43,273 nucleotides of DNA from an uncultured Planctomycetales bacterium (GTDB taxonomy: Bacteria; Omnitrophota; Gorgyraeia; Gygaellales; Profunditerraquicolaceae), in assembly GCA_964456925.1 (NCBI GenBank), contig CAYWCX010000003.1, positions 1 to 43,273 on the forward strand. Direction: 5' to 3'. A model generated the notes under the pieces. The model had not been told where the DNA came from, searched no databases, and worked only from the letters and a program-made list of their open reading frames with translations. The position numbers and the translations under genes were made by a program. Numbering within the stretch: position 1 is the first letter of the stretch; the number at the start of each line of letters is the position of its first letter. Positions 4,960-38,541 of this stretch are shown piece after piece.

Positions 4960-6098
4960 AGGGTTGCGAGGAAATTCAGGATAATCTCGGCAGCACGCTT
5001 GCTGGCTCCTTTTTCTCCGAGGAGGGCGCTGACGCCGAGGAGTTCCCGGTGTAGGCTTTCTGATGCGGCAGGATCCTTTAATACCCTGAGCGCTTCGCGG
5101 GCTATTCTTGCGGGGGTGGCCTGGAACTGGATGAATTCCCGCACTATTCTTTTACCCGCCACGATATTAACCATCGCAATATAAGGCACCCTTACCTGCG
5201 GCAGGTAGAGCAGAAAGTTCAGTAGGCTCATCTTGTAAACCACGGCAAAGGGTTTGGCAAGAATCGCAGTTTCCAGGGTCGCGGTGCCGGAGCATACCAG
5301 ATTGAAGTCCGCGGCATTAAGGCAATCGTAGGTTTCTCCTTCCGCTATCATCGCCTCTAAATTCGCTGCTTTTAGTTTATCCTGATAGATATCCAAATCC
5401 AGTTGCGGGACCTTGGCGATGACGAACTGGACTCGGGGTAACTCCTTTTTGACAATGCGGCCGGTACCGAGCATTACGGGGAGTATTTTTTCCACTTCCT
5501 GGCGGCGCGAGCCGGGCAATAGCGCTACGATAGGCCGGTCGTGTTTGAGATTTAAGGCGTCGCAGAATTCTTTTTTGGAAAACAGCGGTTTTACGATATC
5601 AAGCAGCGGATGCCCCGCAAATTCCGCTGCCACGCCGTAGCGCCGGTAGAGTTCCTTTTCAAAGGCAAAGAGCACTACCATTTTGGAGATATATTTTTGA
5701 ATGGTTTTTATCCTGCCGCGCCGGGAAGCCCAAACCTGCGGGCTGACGTAATAAATTACCGGCAGTTTTTTGTTGATTGATTTGGCAAGCCTTAGGTTAA
5801 AACCCGAAAAATCTACCAGGATTATGGCGTCGGGTTTTTCCAAACTTATTTTTTTCAGGATGAGGTTTTTCAGGGCAATAAAACGGGGAAGTTTTTTTAA
5901 GGCGTCGAAAAACCCCATTACCGCCAGCCCTTTGATATCGTAAAAGATATCGGCGCCTGCCTGCCGCAGGAGGTCTGCGCCTACGGCAGAGATTTTAAGG
6001 AGGGGGTCGCGTTCTTTAAGCGCCCGGGTAAGTCCGGAGGCATTCAATTCTCCGGAGGGCTCTCCGCAGATAATAAAAAGATGTTTTATCCGTGCCAT
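4956..6098 (-). CDS. lpxB: Lipid-A-disaccharide synthase
   Basis: N-terminal IICGEPSGELNASGL and YYVSPQVWASRRGRIK match LpxB signature regions. Length 380 aa. Confidence 0.9.
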   Translation of the reverse strand: MARIKHLFIICGEPSGELNASGLTRALKERDPLLKISAVGADLLRQAGADIFYDIKGLAVMGFFDALKKLPRFIALKNLILKKISLEKPDAIILVDFSGFNLRLAKSINKKLPVIYYVSPQVWASRRGRIKTIQKYISKMVVLFAFEKELYRRYGVAAEFAGHPLLDIVKPLFSKKEFCDALNLKHDRPIVALLPGSRRQEVEKILPVMLGTGRIVKKELPRVQFVIAKVPQLDLDIYQDKLKAANLEAMIAEGETYDCLNAADFNLVCSGTATLETAILAKPFAVVYKMSLLNFLLYLPQVRVPYIAMVNIVAGKRIVREFIQFQATPARIAREALRVLKDPAASESLHRELLGVSALLGEKGASKRAAEIILNFLATL

Positions 6099-7102: not shown

Positions 7103-8896
7103 ATGCGCGATTACCTGAAGTTATTGCGGTTTGTGAAGCCCTACCTGCCTTTGTTCGGCCTGGCCGGCATCTGCATGGTTTTCTCCGCCTTATTCGACGG
7201 GGTATCCCTGGCAATGATTGTGCCCCTCGCAGATAAGGTGCTCACCAATAAAAGGATTATCATCCCCGCAAAACTGCCGCCCCTGTTAAATAATCTGGTC
7301 GAGACCTTAAATAACACCTCCCCGGCGGTGCTTTTGAACTATCTGGCGATAGGGATCCTGGTTTTATTCGTCCTCAAAGGCCTGCTCACATTTCTCCAGA
7401 GTTACTTTATGTCGGACATCGGGCAGCGGGTGGTGCGGGATATCAAATTGCGTCTCTACGATAAAATCCAGACCCTGTCTCTGGATTATTTTACCCATAA
7501 GCGCGCCGGAGAGCTTATCTCGCGTATTACCAACGACGTCAAACTTGTGGAAAACGCCGTTTCCTACGGTTCTACCGACCTCATCTATCAGGGGCTGCAG
7601 GTGGCGTTATTTACTTTTCTGATTTTTTTCATCCATCCCCGTCTGGCGCTCATCTCGCTGGTGCTGTTGCCGTTAATCAGCCTGCCCATCGTTAAGGTGG
7701 GTAAGGTGTTGAGGAAACTGTCGCACCGCAGCCAGGAGAAGATGGCCGACCTCAATTCGCTTCTCTACGAGACGATCCTGGGGGTGCGTATCGTGCGGGC
7801 TTTCAATATGGAAGATTATGAAATCAAGAAATTTAACACCGTCAACCAGGGGTATTACAAGGTCGCGATGAAGTCCGTTAAGCGCATGCTTTTGCTAAGC
7901 CCGGTCACGGAATTCCTCGGGGCGATTGCCGGAGTATTCGTCTTTTTTTGGGCGGGCCGGGACGTGATTGCCGGAAGGTTATCCTTCGGGATATTCGGGC
8001 TCTTTCTGGGTTCACTCTTGTCGCTGGTGCGGCCTTTTAAGAAGCTCAGTCAGGTCAACGCCCTTAACGAACAGGCAGCAGCTGCCAGTCAGCGTATTTA
8101 CGAAGTCCTGGATACGACTTCAAGCGTCCTGGAGAAACCGCAGGCGCGGGTATTAAGCGGCTTCAAGGAAAACATTATTTTTGATGGTGTGTGGTTTAGT
8201 TATGCCGAACAGGACATTTTGAAAGGGATAAACCTCGAGATTAGAAAAGGGGAAGTCCTGGCTATCGTCGGGCCCAGCGGCGCGGGTAAATCCACCCTGG
8301 TGGACCTCATCCCGCGTTTTTACGACCCTAAAAAAGGCAGTATTCTCATTGATGGGGTGGATATCCGGGATTTCAGTTTAAGTTCGCTGCGCCAACAGAT
8401 CGGCATCGTTACCCAGGAGACCATCCTTTTTAATGACACTATCCGGGCTAACATCGCCTACGGCAAGCCCGATACCCCGATAAAAGATATTGAGGCAGCC
8501 GCGATGCAGGCGCACGCCCATGATTTTATCCAGCACCTGCCGGCGGGTTACGACACCATGATTGGCGACCGCGGGATGAAGCTTTCCGGGGGTGAGCGCC
8601 AGAGGATTGCCATTGCGCGGGCGCTTTTGAAAAATCCGCCCATCCTGATACTGGATGAGGCTACCTCCCAGCTGGATACGGAATCCGAACGCATCGTGCA
8701 GGAGGCGATTGATAAATTGATTCGGGGCCGTACCGTTCTGGTAGTTGCCCACCGGCTTTCTACCATCTGCAACGCCCACAAGATTATCGTGCTGGATAAC
8801 GGCAGCCTCGTGGAGCAGGGTAACCATAAGGAATTGCTGGGGAAAAACGGCCTTTATAGCCGCCTTTATGAGGTTCAGGCTCTAAAAAGAGATTAA
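7103..8896 (+). CDS. msbA: Lipid A / lipid export ABC transporter, fused permease and ATPase (MsbA-like)
   Basis: Six-helix TMD followed by an NBD with Walker A GPSGAGKST, signature LSGGERQR and Walker B ILILDEATS. The start was moved from 6998 to ATG 7103 (MRDYLKLLRFVKPYLP) to remove the overlap with the divergent gene. Confidence 0.88.
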   Translation: MRDYLKLLRFVKPYLPLFGLAGICMVFSALFDGVSLAMIVPLADKVLTNKRIIIPAKLPPLLNNLVETLNNTSPAVLLNYLAIGILVLFVLKGLLTFLQSYFMSDIGQRVVRDIKLRLYDKIQTLSLDYFTHKRAGELISRITNDVKLVENAVSYGSTDLIYQGLQVALFTFLIFFIHPRLALISLVLLPLISLPIVKVGKVLRKLSHRSQEKMADLNSLLYETILGVRIVRAFNMEDYEIKKFNTVNQGYYKVAMKSVKRMLLLSPVTEFLGAIAGVFVFFWAGRDVIAGRLSFGIFGLFLGSLLSLVRPFKKLSQVNALNEQAAAASQRIYEVLDTTSSVLEKPQARVLSGFKENIIFDGVWFSYAEQDILKGINLEIRKGEVLAIVGPSGAGKSTLVDLIPRFYDPKKGSILIDGVDIRDFSLSSLRQQIGIVTQETILFNDTIRANIAYGKPDTPIKDIEAAAMQAHAHDFIQHLPAGYDTMIGDRGMKLSGGERQRIAIARALLKNPPILILDEATSQLDTESERIVQEAIDKLIRGRTVLVVAHRLSTICNAHKIIVLDNGSLVEQGNHKELLGKNGLYSRLYEVQALKRD

Positions 8897-11792: not shown

Positions 11793-11865
11793 GGGCCACT
11801 AGCTCATCTGGTAGAGCACCACCCTTTTAAGGTGGGTGTGCCGCGTTCGAGTCGCGGGTGGCTCA
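11793..11865 (+). tRNA. tRNA-Lys (anticodon UUU); CCA not encoded
   Basis: Hand-folded cloverleaf. Acceptor GGGCCAC/GTGGCTC (one G-U pair). D stem GCTC/GAGC. Anticodon stem CCACC/GGTGG with loop CTTTTAA. T stem CCGCG/CGCGG with loop TTCGAGT. Discriminator A. Confidence 0.92.
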
Positions 11866-12002
11866 CGAATTGTCTCCGCGAGGAGAACGCCAAGGGGGCT
11901 GCGGGGGAAAAATTCCCCCGCGCTTTCGGGGTGACAGCGACCCGCCGCAGGCGGGGAGCGCCAGAGGGGCGGGAAGCCCCTATGGCGAGCGCGGATGCGC
12001 GA

Positions 12003-12027
12003 CGCGTTCGAGTCGCGGGTGGCTCAC
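12003..12027 (+). repeat. 25-nt exact direct copy of the tRNA-Lys 3' end (T-arm 3' part plus acceptor 3' strand; original at 11842-11866)
   Basis: CGCGTTCGAGTCGCGGGTGGCTCAC occurs at 11842-11866 and again at 12003-12027. No matching 5' acceptor, D arm or anticodon arm precedes the second copy. Confidence 0.9.
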
Positions 12028-12079
12028 TATTTTTCTCATGCACGTTCCCAAATCCGCAGGTTATTTTAAAGTAAATGAC

Positions 12080-12161
12080 GCGGACGTGGCGGAACTGGTA
12101 TACGCGTATGGCTTAGGACCATATGGGGTAACCCTTGGGGGTCCAAATCCCTCCGTCCGCA
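12080..12161 (+). tRNA. tRNA-Leu (anticodon UAG), type II with a long variable arm and an atypical T-loop
   Basis: Acceptor GCGGACG/CGTCCGC. Anticodon stem TATGG/CCATA with loop CTTAGGA. Variable arm TGGGGTAACCCTT. T stem GGGGG/CCCTC with loop TCCAAAT, which has C where the near-universal U55 is expected. Confidence 0.8.
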
Positions 12162-12197
12162 ATTAAGTTAAAACTAAGACGGCTAGCGATTGTTACA

Positions 12198-12707
12198 ATG
12201 AAAGAGCAAATCTCAATAATGAATCATGCGCGGATACTAAAAAGGCGCCGCAGAGATTTATCTGTAAAAAATTCGGCTAGCGAATTATTTGAGAAATATA
12301 AAAACAATCCCTTATTTCTTTCCGGGGTCGTGCTTTACTGGGCTGAAGGGACCCGTCTTAACAAAAACTATAGGAGATATCAATTAGCTTTTACTAATTC
12401 TGATTCAAAGCTACTGAGTTTTTATTCTAAGTTTTTACAAAGATATTTTAGAGATATAGACAGTAAAGATTGGCGCATAGGATTATTTTTATATCCCGAC
12501 ATAGATAGTAGGCAAGCTATTTCGTATTGGTCGCATATTTTAAGGGTTCCGCGGGAGCAGTTTATTAAGCCTCAAATATTAACAGGCCAAAATATACAGA
12601 ATAAAAAGTTAAAATTTGGAACCTGTTGTCTATATATCAATAGCAAAGACGCCTGCCTGAGAATGCAGACGTGGATAGATGCTATCGGCAGTCAGACGCG
12701 GCGGTAA
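12198..12707 (+). CDS. AT-rich hypothetical protein; putative single-motif LAGLIDADG-type homing-endonuclease-like protein
   Basis: The ORF fills the tRNA-Leu/tRNA-Gly spacer. GVVLYWAEGT resembles the LAGLIDADG variant (xGLYLAEG), and QLAFTNSDSKLLSFYSKFLQRYF and FGTCCLYINS resemble the following beta-strand and helix pattern of that fold. The region is visibly lower in GC than its neighbours. The start is uncertain (ATG 12198 or 12219, no clear SD). The stop TAA 12705-12707 lies inside tRNA-Gly. Confidence 0.6.
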   Translation: MKEQISIMNHARILKRRRRDLSVKNSASELFEKYKNNPLFLSGVVLYWAEGTRLNKNYRRYQLAFTNSDSKLLSFYSKFLQRYFRDIDSKDWRIGLFLYPDIDSRQAISYWSHILRVPREQFIKPQILTGQNIQNKKLKFGTCCLYINSKDACLRMQTWIDAIGSQTRR

Positions 12708-12772
12708 TTCAGCGGTAGAATGCCTGCTTGCCAAGCAGGATGTCACGGGTTCAAGTCCCGTCCGCCGCTCCA
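12698..12772 (+). tRNA. tRNA-Gly (anticodon GCC); CCA encoded
   Basis: Acceptor GCGGCGG/CCGCCGC. D stem ATTC/GAAT. Anticodon stem CCTGC/GCAGG with loop TTGCCAA. T stem ACGGG/CCCGT with loop TTCAAGT. Discriminator T followed by CCA. Confidence 0.93.
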
Positions 12773-19577: not shown

Positions 19578-19580
19578 ATT

Positions 19581-19737
19581 TAGTAACTAGTAATTCAGTA
19601 ACTGGTAATTAAAGGCCGTAAAGCGTAATTCGTAAACCGTAAATGGTAATTTTTAGGAACAAAAGATTACGGATTACGATTTACGGATTACTGATTACAA
19701 AAATTACTAGTTACTCGTTACTAGTTTACTAGTTACT
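19581..19737. repeat. Imperfect palindrome of about 160 nt built from GTAA-containing ~7-nt units (left arm) and their complement TTAC units (right arm)
   Basis: Left arm: TAGTAACTAGTAATTCAGTAACTGGTAATT..CCGTAAAGCGTAATTCGTAAACCGTAAATGGTAAT. Centre: TTTTAGGAACAAAAG. Right arm: ATTACGGATTACGATTTACGGATTACTGATTAC..AATTACTAGTTACTCGTTACTAGTTTACTAGTTACT. It occupies the whole metK-ahcY spacer. Confidence 0.85.
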
Positions 19738-19754
19738 TAACATAAGGAGATTTA

Positions 19755-21011
19755 ATGAGGTATGATATTAAGGATATTAAATTAGCGAAAAAGGGCGGCT
19801 TGAGGATTGAATGGGCCAGGAACAATATGCCGGTCTTAAGGCTGATAGCAGAGCGTTTCCAAAGACAGCGCCCGTTAAGGGGCCTGAAGGTTTCCTGCTG
19901 TTTACACGTTACTACCGAGACCGCGGTGTTGGCCGAGGTGCTAAGAAGAGGCGGGGCCGAGGTGGCGATTTGCGCCTCCAATCCGCTCTCCACCCAGGAT
20001 GACGTGGCCGCTTCTTTGGTCAGGGATGCAAAAATTCCGGTTTTTGCAATTAAAGGCGAAAACACCGCAACTTATTATAAGCATATTAAGGCGACGCTGG
20101 CTTCCCGGCCGGATATCACCATGGATGACGGCGCGGATTTAGTGAGCACCATACACCGCCGCAGTCCCGAAAAGCACCGCAATATCATCGGCGGCACCGA
20201 AGAGACCACTACCGGCGTGATAAGGTTGCGCGCCTTGGCGCGGGAAGGAAAATTACGTTATCCCATTATTGCGGTAAATGACGCCTCCACCAAGCACCTT
20301 TTTGATAACCGCTACGGCACCGGCCAATCCACGGTTGACGGGATTGTGCGCGCCACCAATAAATTACTGGCAGGCGCGAATTTCGTAGTCTGCGGTTACG
20401 GCTGGTGCGGTAAAGGCGTGGCAATGCGCGCTAACGGCATGGGCGCTAAGGTGATTATAGTTGAGGTTTCCCCTTTGCGCGGCCTTGAGGCAGCGATGGA
20501 CGGCTTCCAGGTTATGCCGATTGCCCGGGCAGCTAAAATCGGCGATATCTTTGTTACCACTACCGGCGACACTGCCGTTATCCGTCAAGAGCATTTCAAG
20601 GCAATGAAGGACGGCGCCATCGTCGCCAACTCCGGGCATTTTAATGTCGAGGTCGATATCCCGGCTCTGGCAAAGTTAGCCCGCGCGAAAAAACGCATCC
20701 GGGATTTTGTGGATGAGTATATTTTAAAGGACGGCCGTAAGATTTACGTTTTAGGCGAGGGCAGGCTGATTAACCTCGCGGCTGCCGAAGGTCACCCCGC
20801 ACAGGTGATGGATATGTCCTTCGCCAACCAGGCGTTAAGCGTCGAGTATATCGCCCGCAACCATAAGAAATTAAGCAATGATGTTTATGGCGTCCCGGCG
20901 GAACTGGACCATAAAGTTGCGGATTTGAAATTAAAATCTTTAGGTATTAAAATAGACGTCCTTACGAAGGAACAGAAGAAGTATCTTGCCAGTTGGGAGT
21001 TAGGCACTTGA
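19755..21011 (+). CDS. ahcY: Adenosylhomocysteinase
   Basis: [35 protein letters not shown] and [12 protein letters not shown] motifs. Confidence 0.96.
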
Positions 21012-32805: not shown

Positions 32806-34613
32806 ATCCGAGCGCTTATCTTCTTAAAACCCTTTCTGCGAGCAAGTGGAATAAAATCGGTTTAAGTAAAAGGGCAGGGGTTTTAGTGCCGTTATTCTCG
32901 GTATTCTCGGAAGAGAGCAGCGGTATCGGCGACCTCAACGACCTTAAACTCCTCGCAGATTGGACGCATGCCGCCGGCGGCTCTATCCTGCAGTTTCTGC
33001 CGCTGAATGAGATGGGGACACTTTGCTGTCCCTACGATGCGCTAAGTTCCTTTGCCCTGGAGCCCGCGTATCTTTCGCTTGTCAAATTAGACCCTCCCCT
33101 CCCGCAATCTTTAATACGGGAAATCAAAAATAATTTTTGCCTTCCGCAGCAGCGGTTAAATTACGCGGTCAAGGATGCGAAGTTAAGGGCGCTCTGGGAG
33201 ATTTTCCGGCAGTCCGGCAGCAGGGAACCGGCGGGGCTAGAGGAATTTATGGAGCGCAACACTTACTGGCTGGAGGATTTTGCCCTTTTTAAGGTCCTGA
33301 AATATTACCAGCAGGGCCGGCCGTGGTACGAGTGGGGGGGCGGATATAAAAACCGCGATGCCGCTCTCTTAGAGAGTTTTAAAAAAGAACATGACAGCGA
33401 AATCCGTTTTCAGATTTGGCTACAGTGGCAGCTCTGGCGCCAGTTTAAGGCAGCCAGGGGATATGTCGCATCCCGAAACGTTCTTCTAAAGGGTGACCTG
33501 CCGGTATTGGTTTCCCGCGACAGCGCCGATGTGTGGGCGCATCCGCATTTCTTCAAATTAGACTTTGCTGCCGGAGCTCCGCCGGATATGTATGCCGCTT
33601 TAGGGCAACGCTGGGGGATGCCGCCTTATAATTGGGAGGCGATTGCCGGCGACAACTACCGTTATCTTAAGGAGAGGCTTAAATTTGCCCAGGAATTTTA
33701 TGATATTTTAAGGATTGACCACGTGGTGGGGTTGTTCCGTATCTGGAGTATCCCTTATGATGAACCGACGGAGAACCAGGGGCTGAATGGTTTTTTTGAC
33801 CCGCGCGAGGAATCCAGGTGGCACGAGCACGGCAAGAAGATATTATCCGTGATGCTTGAGAATACTACAATGCTCTTATGCGCCGAGGATTTAGGGGTTA
33901 TCCCCAAGGCCTGCACCGCAACCCTTAAGGAACTGGGTATTCCCGGCAATGAAGTGCAGCGCTGGGTTAAGGACTGGAAGACCCGGCATGATTTTTTGCC
34001 TCCCGAAGAATACCGCATGCTTTCAGTGGCGGTGTTATCCACTCACGACACCACCAATTGGCCGGCCTGGTGGGAAAATGAGGCAGGCACGGTTGATGAA
34101 GGCCTTTTCAAGCGAAGATGCGCCGAACGCGGCATAGATTACCGTCTCGTAAAGGATAAACTTTTTGACCCCGTTCGTTCCCGTCACCGGAGATTGCGCT
34201 GGCGGGAGGATGTTGATAGCGTCGATAAATTGATAAATATCCTGGGTAAGAAGCAAAAGGAGCTGCTGGATTTTATCGAGTTTTACGAGAATAGTTACCG
34301 CGAGAAAGAAAAATTATGGCATCGCCTTAATCTCGGCGGTTTGATGCGCGAGAACTCTGACGCCGAAATCCTGCGCGCGGTCCTGAAGTTTACGCTGGCA
34401 TCAAATGCCGTATTCTGCATCCAGCATATCATGGATATCCTGCTTTTAGGCGGTTCGCTCAGCGGGGATCCCTACCAATACCGCATCAATACCCCCGGCA
34501 CTGCAGGTCCCGATAACTGGTCCTGGGTGATGCCGTTTTCGCTCGAGGAGTTACTGCGCCACAGGATTACCGGGGAATTAAAAAGGCTGACAAATGCTTC
34601 GGGGAGAATATAA
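32802..34613 (+). CDS. malQ: 4-alpha-glucanotransferase (amylomaltase, GH77), long form
   Basis: SGIGDLNDL, LRIDHVVGL, CAEDLG and STHDT are GH77 catalytic-region motifs. Confidence 0.9.
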   Translation: MNPSAYLLKTLSASKWNKIGLSKRAGVLVPLFSVFSEESSGIGDLNDLKLLADWTHAAGGSILQFLPLNEMGTLCCPYDALSSFALEPAYLSLVKLDPPLPQSLIREIKNNFCLPQQRLNYAVKDAKLRALWEIFRQSGSREPAGLEEFMERNTYWLEDFALFKVLKYYQQGRPWYEWGGGYKNRDAALLESFKKEHDSEIRFQIWLQWQLWRQFKAARGYVASRNVLLKGDLPVLVSRDSADVWAHPHFFKLDFAAGAPPDMYAALGQRWGMPPYNWEAIAGDNYRYLKERLKFAQEFYDILRIDHVVGLFRIWSIPYDEPTENQGLNGFFDPREESRWHEHGKKILSVMLENTTMLLCAEDLGVIPKACTATLKELGIPGNEVQRWVKDWKTRHDFLPPEEYRMLSVAVLSTHDTTNWPAWWENEAGTVDEGLFKRRCAERGIDYRLVKDKLFDPVRSRHRRLRWREDVDSVDKLINILGKKQKELLDFIEFYENSYREKEKLWHRLNLGGLMRENSDAEILRAVLKFTLASNAVFCIQHIMDILLLGGSLSGDPYQYRINTPGTAGPDNWSWVMPFSLEELLRHRITGELKRLTNASGRI

Positions 34614-34614
34614 G

Positions 34615-35274
34615 ATGAAATTGCATCCGCAGGCGGTAATCTTTGATATGGACGGGGTGATTGTAGATTCAATGCCTTACCATTTCATCGCCTGGCATGA
34701 AGCGCTGCGGCCCTACGGCGCGCGGGTGAGCTGTTTTGATGTTTTTACCAAGGAAGGGGAGCGCTGGGAGAGGTCGCTTGAGGATTTCCTGAGGCGCGCC
34801 GGGATAACGCCTACACCCAGGATTCTCAATAAGATATTTTTAGAACGCAAGAGGATTTTCAAGCGTTATTTTAAGCGTTTTATCTTTAAGGGTGCCGGAG
34901 AATTCTTACGTTGTTTGAAAAAAAGGGGTTATTCTTTAGGGGTAGTAACGGGGACGCCGTTAGAGGAATTAAATAAAATACTTCCCCGCAGTATCAGAGA
35001 GTTATTCGAGGTGGTGGTTACCGGAGACAGCGTTAAAAAAGGCAAACCCCATCCTGAACCGTATCTTAAAGCTGCTTCTGTTTTAGGGCTTCGGCCAAAG
35101 CAATGCCTGGTAGTAGAGAATGCGCCTTTCGGCATCGCATCCGCCAAGAAGGCCGGGATGTTCTGCATTGCCATTACCACCAGCCTGCCGAGAGACTACC
35201 TTAAGCAAGCCGATATCATTGTCGATAGATTAGAAGATATCACAGGCATTATCGAAAAAAGTTGTAAGATATAA
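34615..35274 (+). CDS. HAD-superfamily hydrolase (beta-phosphoglucomutase-like subfamily IA)
   Basis: AVIFDMDGVIVDS (DxDG motif I), VVTGT (motif II) and KGKPHPEPY (motif III). ATG 34615 with a GGGGAG RBS is preferred over 34594. Confidence 0.88.
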   Translation: MKLHPQAVIFDMDGVIVDSMPYHFIAWHEALRPYGARVSCFDVFTKEGERWERSLEDFLRRAGITPTPRILNKIFLERKRIFKRYFKRFIFKGAGEFLRCLKKRGYSLGVVTGTPLEELNKILPRSIRELFEVVVTGDSVKKGKPHPEPYLKAASVLGLRPKQCLVVENAPFGIASAKKAGMFCIAITTSLPRDYLKQADIIVDRLEDITGIIEKSCKI

Positions 35275-35333
35275 TTTTACGGTTTTGCTTCGCGCACTGG
35301 ATTTTTACGCCGTGCGGAGCTTTAATGAACCTG

Positions 35334-35361
35334 CCGATTTTCTCGCTTGAAGTCGGTTTTT
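35334..35361 (+). terminator. Rho-independent terminator candidate for the ilv..HAD operon
   Basis: CCGATTT (35334-35340) pairs with AAGTCGG (35350-35356), including one G-U pair, and is followed by TTTTT (35357-35361). Confidence 0.5.
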
Positions 35362-35594
35362 AACGCCAATGGTCTTTCGCATTTCGGTGGCTGCTGAACT
35401 CACGATTTTTGCTCTGGCAAAAATCGTTCAAACAGCATCGCCATCCCGAGATTGTCAGCCTTGCGGCTGACCTCGGGATTCCCTTAATGCTCAAGCTCCA
35501 TTGGCTAAAACCTCCATTCGCTCGAAATATCGCCAGGTTCATTTGAAGTTGTTTGAACGGTTTAGTTTGATTCCGAGCAATATATATAATAAAG

Positions 35595-35776
35595 ATTTTA
35601 TGGCTTTTGCTGGAGCGTGCATAAGAAATTTTTTGGTTACAACTTCTAATTTGAGTCGGCGAGGGATTACGACGAGCCGTAGTGCGCCTGCCCCGCGATA
35701 GCCTACTGACGGAGGCAAGGAGTAAACCGAAGCCGACAGCAAAAAATTTCAGCACGCGGAAGCAAAGCCATAAAAT
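35595..35776 (+). other. 182-nt long-hairpin element; candidate structured ncRNA (6S-like size and shape) or MITE; strand not established
   Basis: 35595-35634 pairs with 35741-35776 in four blocks: 13 bp (35595-35607 / 35764-35776), 3 bp (35609-35611 / 35761-35763), 6 bp (35615-35620 / 35752-35757) and 10 bp (GAAATTTTTT 35625-35634 / AAAAAATTTC 35741-35750). A 20-nt by 3-nt asymmetric loop follows, then GTCGGC/GCCGAC (35655-35660 / 35732-35737) closes a GC-rich apical domain. A TATAAT box at 35585-35590 lies just upstream. No credible ORF is present. Confidence 0.4.
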
Positions 35777-35824
35777 AACGGTAATATTAGACGAAAAGAT
35801 CTGTAGATTCATTAGAAGGATAGA

Positions 35825-36544
35825 ATGAAGGATTTGACGGGGGCGGGATTTTATATTTCGAAAAGCGTCGGCAAGGCGATCAGCGACTATAATATGCTCT
35901 CCGACGGGGATAAGATTGCGGTGGCAGTATCAGGAGGCAAGGATAGTCTGACATTGCTTAATATTCTGAATACCCGTCGTCAGTTTGTGCCTATAAAGTA
36001 TGAATTGTTAGCCGTACATATTGATTTAGGTTATCCCTGTCAGCATCCCAGGATACTGGCGCAATACTTCCAGAAAATAGGAGTAGATTACCATATCGAG
36101 AAAGTGGATATTTTGCAGGGTAAGACACGTAAAGATATCAGTTGTTTCTGGTGTTCCTGGAATCGCAGAAAGGCGTTATTCGGAGTCGCTGACCGTTTTG
36201 GATGCACTAAGGTTGCTTTGGGTCACCACAAGGATGATATTGTCGAGACTATACTTTTGAATTTATTCTTTCATGGCGAAATTTCTGCGATGTCGCCCAA
36301 GCAGGAACTTTTTAAGGGCAAGATTATCATTGTCCGCCCGCTAGCATATGTGGATGAAAGCATGATTGTCAGGTATGCAAAGGCCGCGGGGTTCCCGCAT
36401 GAAAAATGCTCTTGTCCTAACTCTTTAACCTCCAAACGGACCCAAATCACCAGTATCATTAAAGATCTGGAAAAGGTTTGTCCTGAGATAAGGACAAACA
36501 TATTCAGAAGTGTCAAGCGCATCAAGAGCGAGTATCTGCTTTAA
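35825..36544 (+). CDS. ttcA: TtcA-family PP-loop ATPase (tRNA 2-thiocytidine biosynthesis-like)
   Basis: VAVSGGKDSLTLL PP-loop, CFWCSW and CSCPNS cysteine motifs, GHHKDDIVETILLNLFFHG. Confidence 0.85.
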   Translation: MKDLTGAGFYISKSVGKAISDYNMLSDGDKIAVAVSGGKDSLTLLNILNTRRQFVPIKYELLAVHIDLGYPCQHPRILAQYFQKIGVDYHIEKVDILQGKTRKDISCFWCSWNRRKALFGVADRFGCTKVALGHHKDDIVETILLNLFFHGEISAMSPKQELFKGKIIIVRPLAYVDESMIVRYAKAAGFPHEKCSCPNSLTSKRTQITSIIKDLEKVCPEIRTNIFRSVKRIKSEYLL

Positions 36545-38269: not shown

Positions 38270-38278
38270 TAAGACCTT

Positions 38279-38527
38279 ATGCCCAGCTACGATTTACAAT
38301 TCGTCTTAAGCGCTTATAATCTGAATAGCGATGTCCTCAAAGATACTATTAGCGGGTTCGGAGAAGGGCTTGAGGTAGTTGAGTTGGGTCGAGACAGCGT
38401 ATCTTGCTACTGCGATTTCGAAGTGCATATTTCTACCCGTGACCCCACCCTTATTTTTGACAGTTGTTCGGCAATTGGCAGGATTAAATCCGTCAGGATT
38501 GACGAGAAAAAAGACGGGGTTATTTAA
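38279..38527 (+). CDS. Small hypothetical protein (82 aa)
   Basis: Compact ORF tightly spaced between pgeF and the flavodoxin gene. No family was recognised by eye. Confidence 0.5.
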   Translation: MPSYDLQFVLSAYNLNSDVLKDTISGFGEGLEVVELGRDSVSCYCDFEVHISTRDPTLIFDSCSAIGRIKSVRIDEKKDGVI

Positions 38528-38541
38528 AGAAAGGAGCAGCG

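Follow-up and report, generated by a model that had tools for sequence, protein, structure and literature searches.

The locus

The intergenic DNA considered here lies in a stretch of 43,273 nt (hereafter the window), positions 1 to 43,273 of contig CAYWCX010000003.1 in assembly GCA_964456925.1, from an uncultured bacterium labelled Planctomycetales and placed by GTDB in Omnitrophota. Between a gene for a HAD-family hydrolase (34594-35274, plus strand) and one for a PP-loop, TtcA-like protein (35825-36544, also plus) is a gap of 550 nt, and this gap is a mosaic of two phylum-specific, multi-copy structured families, here termed A and B, together with a relic arm. In order along the plus strand come the relic arm (35274-35310), element B (35324-35547) and element A (35595-35777), with a short segment complementary to one end of B lying beyond.

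A sequence-only reading of the same DNA had pointed to a structured, non-random element without an Rfam counterpart, and in this it has held up: a search of both strands of 35100-36000 with the Rfam covariance models gave nothing at E <= 10. At gathering score there was likewise no match for A, B or other modules in the window and 18 related loci, the Rfam (release 15) matches in this material being limited to tRNAs and one DUF3800-V RNA elsewhere. (The latter, RF02964 at 72.9 bits, belongs to locus L042 of Omnitrophica WOR_2 bacterium RBG_13_41_10, where it is on the minus strand at 5895-5994 with an A some 4 kb away; handles of this type denote the loci used for comparison.) What that reading overlooked is that the upstream half of the gap is a separate conserved element, B, and that the first copy of a repeated motif is what is left of an inverted A.

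The description of the gap as free of open reading frames (ORFs) stands only in the sense that no gene is present. A 150-aa ORF with an ATG start runs on the minus strand across both A and B (35360-35812), and its being a real gene, with the structure incidental, is scarcely credible. Its product is low-complexity, rich in Arg and Ser and without a Pfam match. Between homologues there are indels whose lengths are not divisible by three, together with compensatory changes in pairs, and 11 other loci with B and A fail to preserve the open frame; the ORF is taken to be a chance one.

Element A and its family

Element A, on the plus strand, is an interrupted rod of about 182 nt. The motif of about 18-25 nt reported as occurring three times does so (35274-35291, 35595-35607 and, inverted, 35759-35776), and its second and third copies, with GAAATTTTTT/AAAAAATTTC, close the rod as had been proposed. 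The outer stem, P1, pairs 35595-35613 with 35758-35776. Inside it are P2a (GCGTGC, 35615-35620, with GCACGC, 35752-35757), P2b (GAAATTTTTTG, 35625-35635, with CAAAAAATTTC, 35740-35750), a bulge of 18 nt on the 5' side (35637-35654) and P3 (GTCGGC, 35655-35660, with GCCGAC, 35732-35737), the last two having also been correctly picked out beforehand. Beyond are a core of GG/CC and UUAC/GUAA and a lineage-specific tip (about 35670-35720), for which the single-sequence minimum free energy (MFE) fold disagrees with the family consensus of GG/CC, UUAC/GUAA and G-A-rich loops, so that the pseudoknot suggested for the tip finds no support. For 35590-35785 the MFE is -70.6 kcal/mol, while 200 shuffles, none of them as stable, give -48.0 +/- 3.9 kcal/mol (z = -5.7); the minus strand of the same segment also folds well (z = -4.8). 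A covariance model of the family gives the plus strand of the window copy 145 bits (E = 7e-33) and its minus strand 25.7 bits. Compensatory variation is seen in this copy at P3, which reads GUCGGC/GCCGAC, and next to P2b, where U-A stands in for the C-G pair.

In the family consensus P1 is about 18 bp, starting AUUUU and ending AAAAU with variable sequence between, and is followed inwards by a purine-rich 3x3 junction, P2a (GCGUGC/GCACGC), a 4x1 loop AUWA/A, P2b (GAAAUUUUUUG/CAAAAAAUUUC), a conserved G-G mismatch and a C-G pair. The linker that comes next on the 5' side is 4 nt in 20 of 30 aligned copies, the short form, and 17-21 nt in the other 10; opposite it the 3' strand has no unpaired base, the longer bulge being confined to the 5' strand. 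Past the linker are P3 (GUSNRC), then GG/CC and UUAC/GUAA with G-A-rich internal loops, and finally the tip, which is common to the copies of one genome and different between genomes. Copies range from 165 to 290 nt, with pairing arms of about 40 nt and no conserved ORF. Complementarity of the variable 5' bulge to local flanks was no better than in mismatched controls.

Support for this fold comes from an alignment of 92 distinct sequences in which 96.8% of cells are paired, against 33-46% in slid controls. Double-sided changes are present in 21 of 39 pairs, among them all 8 modelled pairs of P1 and three of the six in P3, and the covariation score of 0.273 compares with 0.091 after shuffling, none of 500 shuffles reaching the observed values. 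The outer 18 bp vary by compensatory change and the inner arms are near-invariant. With P1 and P3 covarying, the inner arms held almost constant and the tip specific to lineage, the fold is conserved, and this can be said with high confidence.

Scanning GTDB species representatives with a 19-mer common to the A copies of the window and L004 gave 49 matching stretches, of which 36 contain real A elements, all but one in metagenome-assembled or single-amplified genomes (MAGs or SAGs) of Candidatus Omnitrophota; the remaining matches are chance ones inside coding sequence of unrelated bacteria. Up to six contigs of one MAG carry A (SPRUCE_286, with DeMMO4_14 likewise at six). A second query, the A 5' arm over metagenomes of the Joint Genome Institute (JGI), yielded at least 119 loci, and among the metagenome matches listed an exact 3' arm accompanies it in 87 of 98. 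The covariance model, built from 30 copies, has at least about 150 matches at 100-174 bits in MAGs, SAGs and metagenomes, and no A copy was found in the viral contigs scanned. That the window element is a member of family A is held with high confidence, and the suggestion of a single dedicated non-coding RNA has given way: 35595-35777 is one copy among many.

Outside genomes labelled Omnitrophota the sole genuine A copy is that of L006 (CAZJFL010000004.1), from a MAG bearing the label 'uncultured Planctomycetales'. Since the gene flanking it shares 78% identity with its counterpart in an Omnitrophota MAG (L040), this MAG may have been mislabelled or wrongly binned. Several copies of A or B are directly beside tRNA genes (L067 at about 8730-8810, downstream of A in L114 and L119, and L045 at 5425-5498).

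Copy number also bears on the likeness to 6S RNA that had been remarked on. A divergent 6S RNA, mimicking open promoter DNA and thereby sequestering RNA polymerase, would be of similar length and also a rod closed by pairing of its 5' and 3' ends, and the window copy, of about 180 nt and with a one-sided bulge, has something of that shape. 6S RNA genes occur once, rarely twice, per genome, their product binding the sigma-70 RNA polymerase and templating product RNA (pRNA). A, in contrast, is present in at least 5-6 copies per genome, matches neither RF00013 nor any other family at E <= 10, and has a bulge that is just 4 nt in 20 of the 30 aligned copies and, where longer, is on the 5' strand only. 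With that copy number and no conserved two-sided central bubble, 6S RNA is ruled out for the family as a whole, and a distant version of it is a highly improbable account of the window copy.

Element B and the relic arm

Element B, of about 225 nt and probably read from the minus strand, is a long irregular stem capped by a bifurcation (nhmmer 221 bits, E = 5e-66). Its closing stem pairs 35324-35341 with 35526-35543, and the two arms of the bifurcation are hairpins that had been seen earlier as isolated features and are as described, that at 35402-35427 with 11 perfect bp and that at 35444-35478. Homologues are present at 18 or more other loci at 75-91% identity. RNAalifold gives a Y-shaped fold with a closing helix AAUGAAYCUGYCG/CGCCAGRUUCAUU, and among 14 homologues 96.4% of cells are paired, 30 of 56 pairs show compensatory changes and the covariation score is 0.294 against 0.093 shuffled. 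A distance of 3-50 nt separates B from the 5' end of an A in 13 of 18 full copies, and the terminal module of B, of about 42 nt, also occurs solo beside the A 5' end, in either orientation, in 28 cases.

The segment at 35274-35310, which contains the first motif copy, is, by its alignment to intact arms in L004, L045 and L021, the relic arm of an inverted A: on the minus strand it corresponds to the P1 3' strand plus a degenerate 3' arm (GCGTAAAAATCCAGTGCGC GAAGCAAAACCGTAAAAT). Divergent pairs of an A on the minus strand and one on the plus strand occur in seven loci (L059, L083, L089, L100, L061, L171 and L173), and the window relic agrees with this arrangement.

Strand, polarity and probable transcription

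Three considerations, and these only, favour a transcript of the A plus strand, namely the excess of G-U pairs, the difference in folding energy between strands, and the polarity of the flanking DNA. In fixed columns of the model alignment G-U or U-G cells number 77 and A-C or C-A cells 24 (53 and 10 in P1 alone), and an unbiased arm-versus-arm DNA alignment, in which both kinds of transition are treated equally, gives 69 G-U and 22 A-C; these two approaches were used since counts taken from MFE folds alone depend on the method. The MFE of the plus strand is the lower in 94% of 89 copies, by a mean of 8.6 kcal/mol, and the conserved bulges are asymmetric between strands. The median length of the non-coding DNA beside A is 129 nt 5' of the element but 37 nt 3' of it (n = 95, p = 2e-9). 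Hexamers resembling a -10 element are enriched about 3-fold in the 4-14 nt upstream of P1 (37 of 124 copies), with which the TATAAT of the window agrees; this candidate -10 element (35585-35590) was correctly reported in the sequence-only reading and ends 4 nt ahead of A. From such features A may well be transcribed from its plus strand with an upstream region of its own. The minus strand of B is the more stable in 14 of 14 copies (alifold -52.9 against -42.6), from which B is probably read divergently from A.

A good deal weighs on the other side. All A copies are intergenic, but their orientation with respect to flanking genes is random (43 opposite to both, 36 the same as both), and many are antisense in operon-like spacers, 5-35 nt from genes, with little room for a promoter. 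Alignment at fixed positions upstream of P1 gives a weak A/T enrichment and no fixed promoter motif, and the family yields no fixed terminator motif and no T-run past the A stem; a strict scan of 35100-36000 for two-hexamer sigma-70 promoters and for intrinsic terminators returned zero sites. Covariation by itself fits folded single-stranded DNA just as well as RNA, and G-U and A-C cells are not independent events. The probable strand of B is assigned mainly by modelled folding energy. The existence of relic arms, of internal deletions and of truncated modules (L044, L045, L120 and the window segment 35274-35310) is more suggestive of decaying repeats than of essential genes. Further, the G-U excess is weaker where A is antisense to both neighbours (17:11) than where it is co-oriented with them (14:2), which suggests that read-through mRNAs also matter.

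This last point is what would be expected of a hairpin acting in cis within mRNAs, as a terminator, insulator or stabiliser in the manner of REP or ERIC sequences, with no independent transcript. The 3' end of A is 8-65 nt from a neighbouring stop or start codon, and the near-palindromic element folds on both strands, which also fit such a role. A simple hairpin, though, has no use for near-invariant sequence, conserved bulges or a G-G mismatch, a T-run is lacking after the A stem, and the plus-strand fold is favoured overall despite the random orientation. A purely cis-acting function is judged unlikely.

Turnover and exchange of elements

The spacers of close relatives differ. Among loci encoding an identical TtcA-like protein, the element of the window recurs in L001 and L003, an unrelated spacer of 276 nt is found in L002 and L005, and L004 has a divergent A copy at another position. 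The L002 allele (L002:270-540, also in L005, L004 and L059) is a nested hairpin whose outer stem pairs GAGACGCTTTCCTC..GGGACAGTGTCTT with AAGACACTGTCC..GAGGAAAGCGTCTC and whose inner stem, GGTGGGTGGCTTGGACTGG.../...GCGCACCCGC, encloses an unrelated core; its right outer arm also follows A in L004 and L059. Relative to L002 the window diverges from about 40 nt before the HAD stop codon to 5 nt before the ttcA ATG (boundaries at 35235-35274 and 35815-35824). Since the gene bodies are 94-100% identical and divergence starts inside the HAD gene, the exchanged segment includes the HAD C-terminus.

Over longer distances A persists at the orthologous site in genomes that have diverged to 70-78% identity in the flanking proteins, and one synteny group, with A next to uvrC, comprises nine loci (eight groups at 90% identity). 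Almost every A is closest to a paralogue of its own genome, with 82-95% identity, whereas copies from other genomes, that at the orthologous site included, reach at most 77%. With similarity thus highest within genomes, family A evolves in concert. A is missing from the site in 23 of 103 pairs with orthologous flanks and inverted in 5 of 40 such pairs with flank identities of 70-85% (L019 versus L027; L009 and L036 versus L035). No inverted pair comes from near-identical flanks, all being between diverged genomes.

The inverted copies might be thought to point to a regulatory module acting at the level of DNA, either an invertible segment or a pair of outward promoters (the termini read TAAAAT outwards, with an A/T tract at the place of an UP element). 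Conserved inverted arms about 110-130 bp apart and conserved ATTTT/AAAAT termini would suit it, as would the opposite orientations at orthologous sites. The restriction of inversion to diverged genomes does not, nor do the covariation of P1 and P3 and the G-U asymmetry, which have no role in duplex DNA, and gene starts are not enriched beside either A end. Such a module is very unlikely.

The clearest single event is provided by L111 and L096, whose flanks are 92-99% identical and which have in common an outer B stem, its left strand about 37 nt and its right strand about 33 nt long. Enclosed by this stem is a B core in L096 and an A in L111, the plus strand of A corresponding to the minus strand of B. 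Such replacement would explain the arrangements in which a B-end module is combined with A, and also a segment at 35792-35814 on the plus strand of the window, where 23 nt are 78% complementary to the left end of B (35323-35345) and may be the outer 'frame' strand around B plus A; the same arrangement, more perfect, is found in L161 and L097. Other outer helices surround A or other cores in L002, L004, L007, L024-L026, L044 and L059, two of them being GCGGGUGG.../...CACCCGC and GAGACGCUUUCCUC..GGGACAGUGUCUU with its complement.

A recurrent module, TTTAGCGGGTGGCTTGGACTGG with the partner (G)ACCCGCTAAA, lies next to A or other cores, upstream or downstream and in one orientation or the other (L007, L024, L025, L026, L044, L128, L139, L171 and others). 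About 25 of 132 upstream regions contain it; it matches nothing in Rfam, and could be a third family or a common outer stem.

Mobility of the conventional kind finds little to sustain it. A MITE (a transposable element of the miniature inverted-repeat type) was put forward initially as an alternative fitting equally well, and the many dispersed copies that it would entail do exist, as do the inverted repeats at the ends, the small size and the lack of coding capacity. The rest of the proposal does not survive: the best direct repeats flanking 120 A copies equal those of a shuffled-partner control, giving no target-site duplication; every 5' arm without an exact 3' arm nearby proved to belong to an ordinary variant or to a copy with an internal deletion, leaving neither cargo nor an autonomous partner in the recovered copies; and the copies are not near-identical, with P1 varying compensatorily. 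A classical MITE is rejected on these grounds. When 1,021 ORFs neighbouring A (about 1 Mb of flanks around some 150 copies) were clustered, no transposase, RAYT or reverse transcriptase appeared, the recurrent neighbours reflecting housekeeping synteny only (UvrC, HypE-like, RuvB, Tmk, QueH, MurJ, XerD, RmuC and FolD).

A broader version, in which A is selfish non-autonomous DNA akin to REPINs, ERIC or Correia elements, moved in trans via a folded single-strand intermediate and with its structure selected for mobilization, deserves more weight while still being rather improbable. Multiple copies dispersed in intergenic DNA whatever the gene orientation, the within-genome similarity, the orthologous sites that lack A or have it inverted in diverged genomes, the occurrence of relics, solo arms and internal deletions, and the nesting of modules into mosaics as in E. 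coli BIMEs are all in keeping with it. So is the frequency with which contigs break inside A (contig ends are found there in L004, L013, L017, L094, L133 and L145). Set against these are the lack of target-site duplications and of any partner gene in the roughly 1 Mb of flanking DNA, and the modest number of copies, about 5-10 in a genome, which are 82-95% identical and show no recent burst. It is the outermost ends of A that are least conserved and an internal part, with asymmetric bulges, that is invariant; the non-coding DNA flanking A is polar; and the sole resolved recent event, that of L111 and L096, is replacement in a shared frame and not insertion.

Comparison with known systems

The closest analogues of A and B appear to be palindromes of the ERIC or Correia type and mosaics of the REP, BIME and REPIN type, A and B being larger and more intricately structured. 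ERIC (IRU) and Correia (NEMIS) sequences are intergenic imperfect palindromes of Enterobacteria and Neisseria, thought to act as transcribed RNA hairpins. Like A and B they are whole-element hairpins of 100-200 nt, multi-copy, strictly intergenic, conserved across a large clade and without coding capacity, and they have optional internal insertions at fixed points. A differs from them in lacking a TA or other target duplication, in its far fewer copies per genome, in outer ends that vary compensatorily around a near-invariant internal segment, in its strand-asymmetric G-U excess and in cassette exchange within shared frames.

What REP, BIME and REPIN sequences share with A and B is a mosaic make-up, with several hairpin modules facing alternate ways, together with lasting retention at orthologous sites, homogeneity within a genome and absence of target duplication. 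Their palindromes are of 20-35 nt, in contrast to the 180-225 nt of the units here, in which there are complex internal loops and a three-way junction. REPINs are mobilized by RAYT transposases, a RAYT being a single-copy Y1 HUH gene flanked by repeats, whereas no RAYT-like gene is beside some 150 A copies and no conserved cleavage motif of the GTAG type was found.

Among RNAs, families of small RNAs that evolve in concert (such as Qrr, LhrC and Yfr2) resemble A in having several similar, homogenized copies per genome at unlinked loci. A is much longer than these, almost fully double-stranded and without an obvious seed region, it lacks a fixed promoter or terminator, and relic and truncated copies of it are common. 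The frames around A and B are reminiscent of processing stems of the rRNA type, in which common outer helices flank different cores (16S and 23S rRNA). A search of the literature on Omnitrophota non-coding RNAs or repeats found nothing relevant beyond the main genomic survey of the phylum, where RNAs were annotated with Rfam alone (PMC10066038).

Other features of the window

Elsewhere in the window an inverted repeat at 19579-19740, with 33-nt arms of GTAACTAGTAA-like units, is in the gap before the gene at 19755, and segments of it of 32-43 nt match the Omnitrophota loci L137, L086, L105, L130 and L060 at 86-97%. Four tRNA genes (Lys, Ser, Leu and Gly) follow the gene for ribosome recycling factor at 11793-12772. 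The spacer between tRNA-Leu and tRNA-Gly (12162-12697) is 536 nt, and its only ORF, of 190 aa, has no Pfam match, making it doubtful that the gap before ttcA is by far the longest non-coding stretch of the window, as had been stated; compared with A, B and the other loci used, this spacer gave no match. A hairpin at 2788-2863, with 36-nt arms (72% complementary) and a 4-nt loop, begins at the stop codon of a gene whose end is at 2790 and could be a terminator or another structured module. The 272-nt gap at 38270-38541 is 86% identical to a stretch in which a gene of 86 residues is called in L001-L003, and a small gene may be present or decaying there.

Interpretation and significance

The reading preferred here, to which an even chance is accorded, is that A and B are transcribed, multi-copy structured RNA elements, specific to Omnitrophota, that turn over by recombination. 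A would be transcribed from its plus strand as an interrupted rod of about 180 nt, the near-invariant core of which (P2a, P2b, the G-G mismatch, P3, GG/CC, UUAC/GUAA and the bulges) could be where a protein or a further RNA docks, while P1 would need only to pair and the tip would be a matter of lineage. B would be a second structured RNA, read divergently from the minus strand. Spread would not be by cut-and-paste; rather, copies of both would be gained, lost, homogenized and exchanged by recombination between the invariant arms and the outer frames, gene conversion via the repeated frames and arms being the simplest mechanism for the exchange of cassettes. Exchange of this type would explain how strains with an identical TtcA-like protein come to differ in the spacer before it.

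More tentatively, A and B may be the cores of an undescribed modular RNA system of Omnitrophota, in which interchangeable cassettes within shared 'frame' stems, possibly processing stems, would be expressed from several loci of a genome as scaffolds for a partner and be shuffled between loci by recombination. If true, this would add a new class of functional RNA and, with it, a novel way for RNA genes to turn over. The Omnitrophota, bacteria not yet cultivated, are for the most part ultra-small and have compact genomes, and their retention per genome of several elements of 180-225 nt, in which almost invariant double-stranded cores go with strong covariation and for which catalogues list no relatives, points to either an unrecognized RNA-protein system or a new type of recombining structured repeat. 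The swap of A for B in near-identical genomes is a concrete and testable case of non-coding cassette exchange. From a practical perspective, family A could be used as a marker for the phylum, and it is one reason why contigs break when Omnitrophota genomes are assembled.

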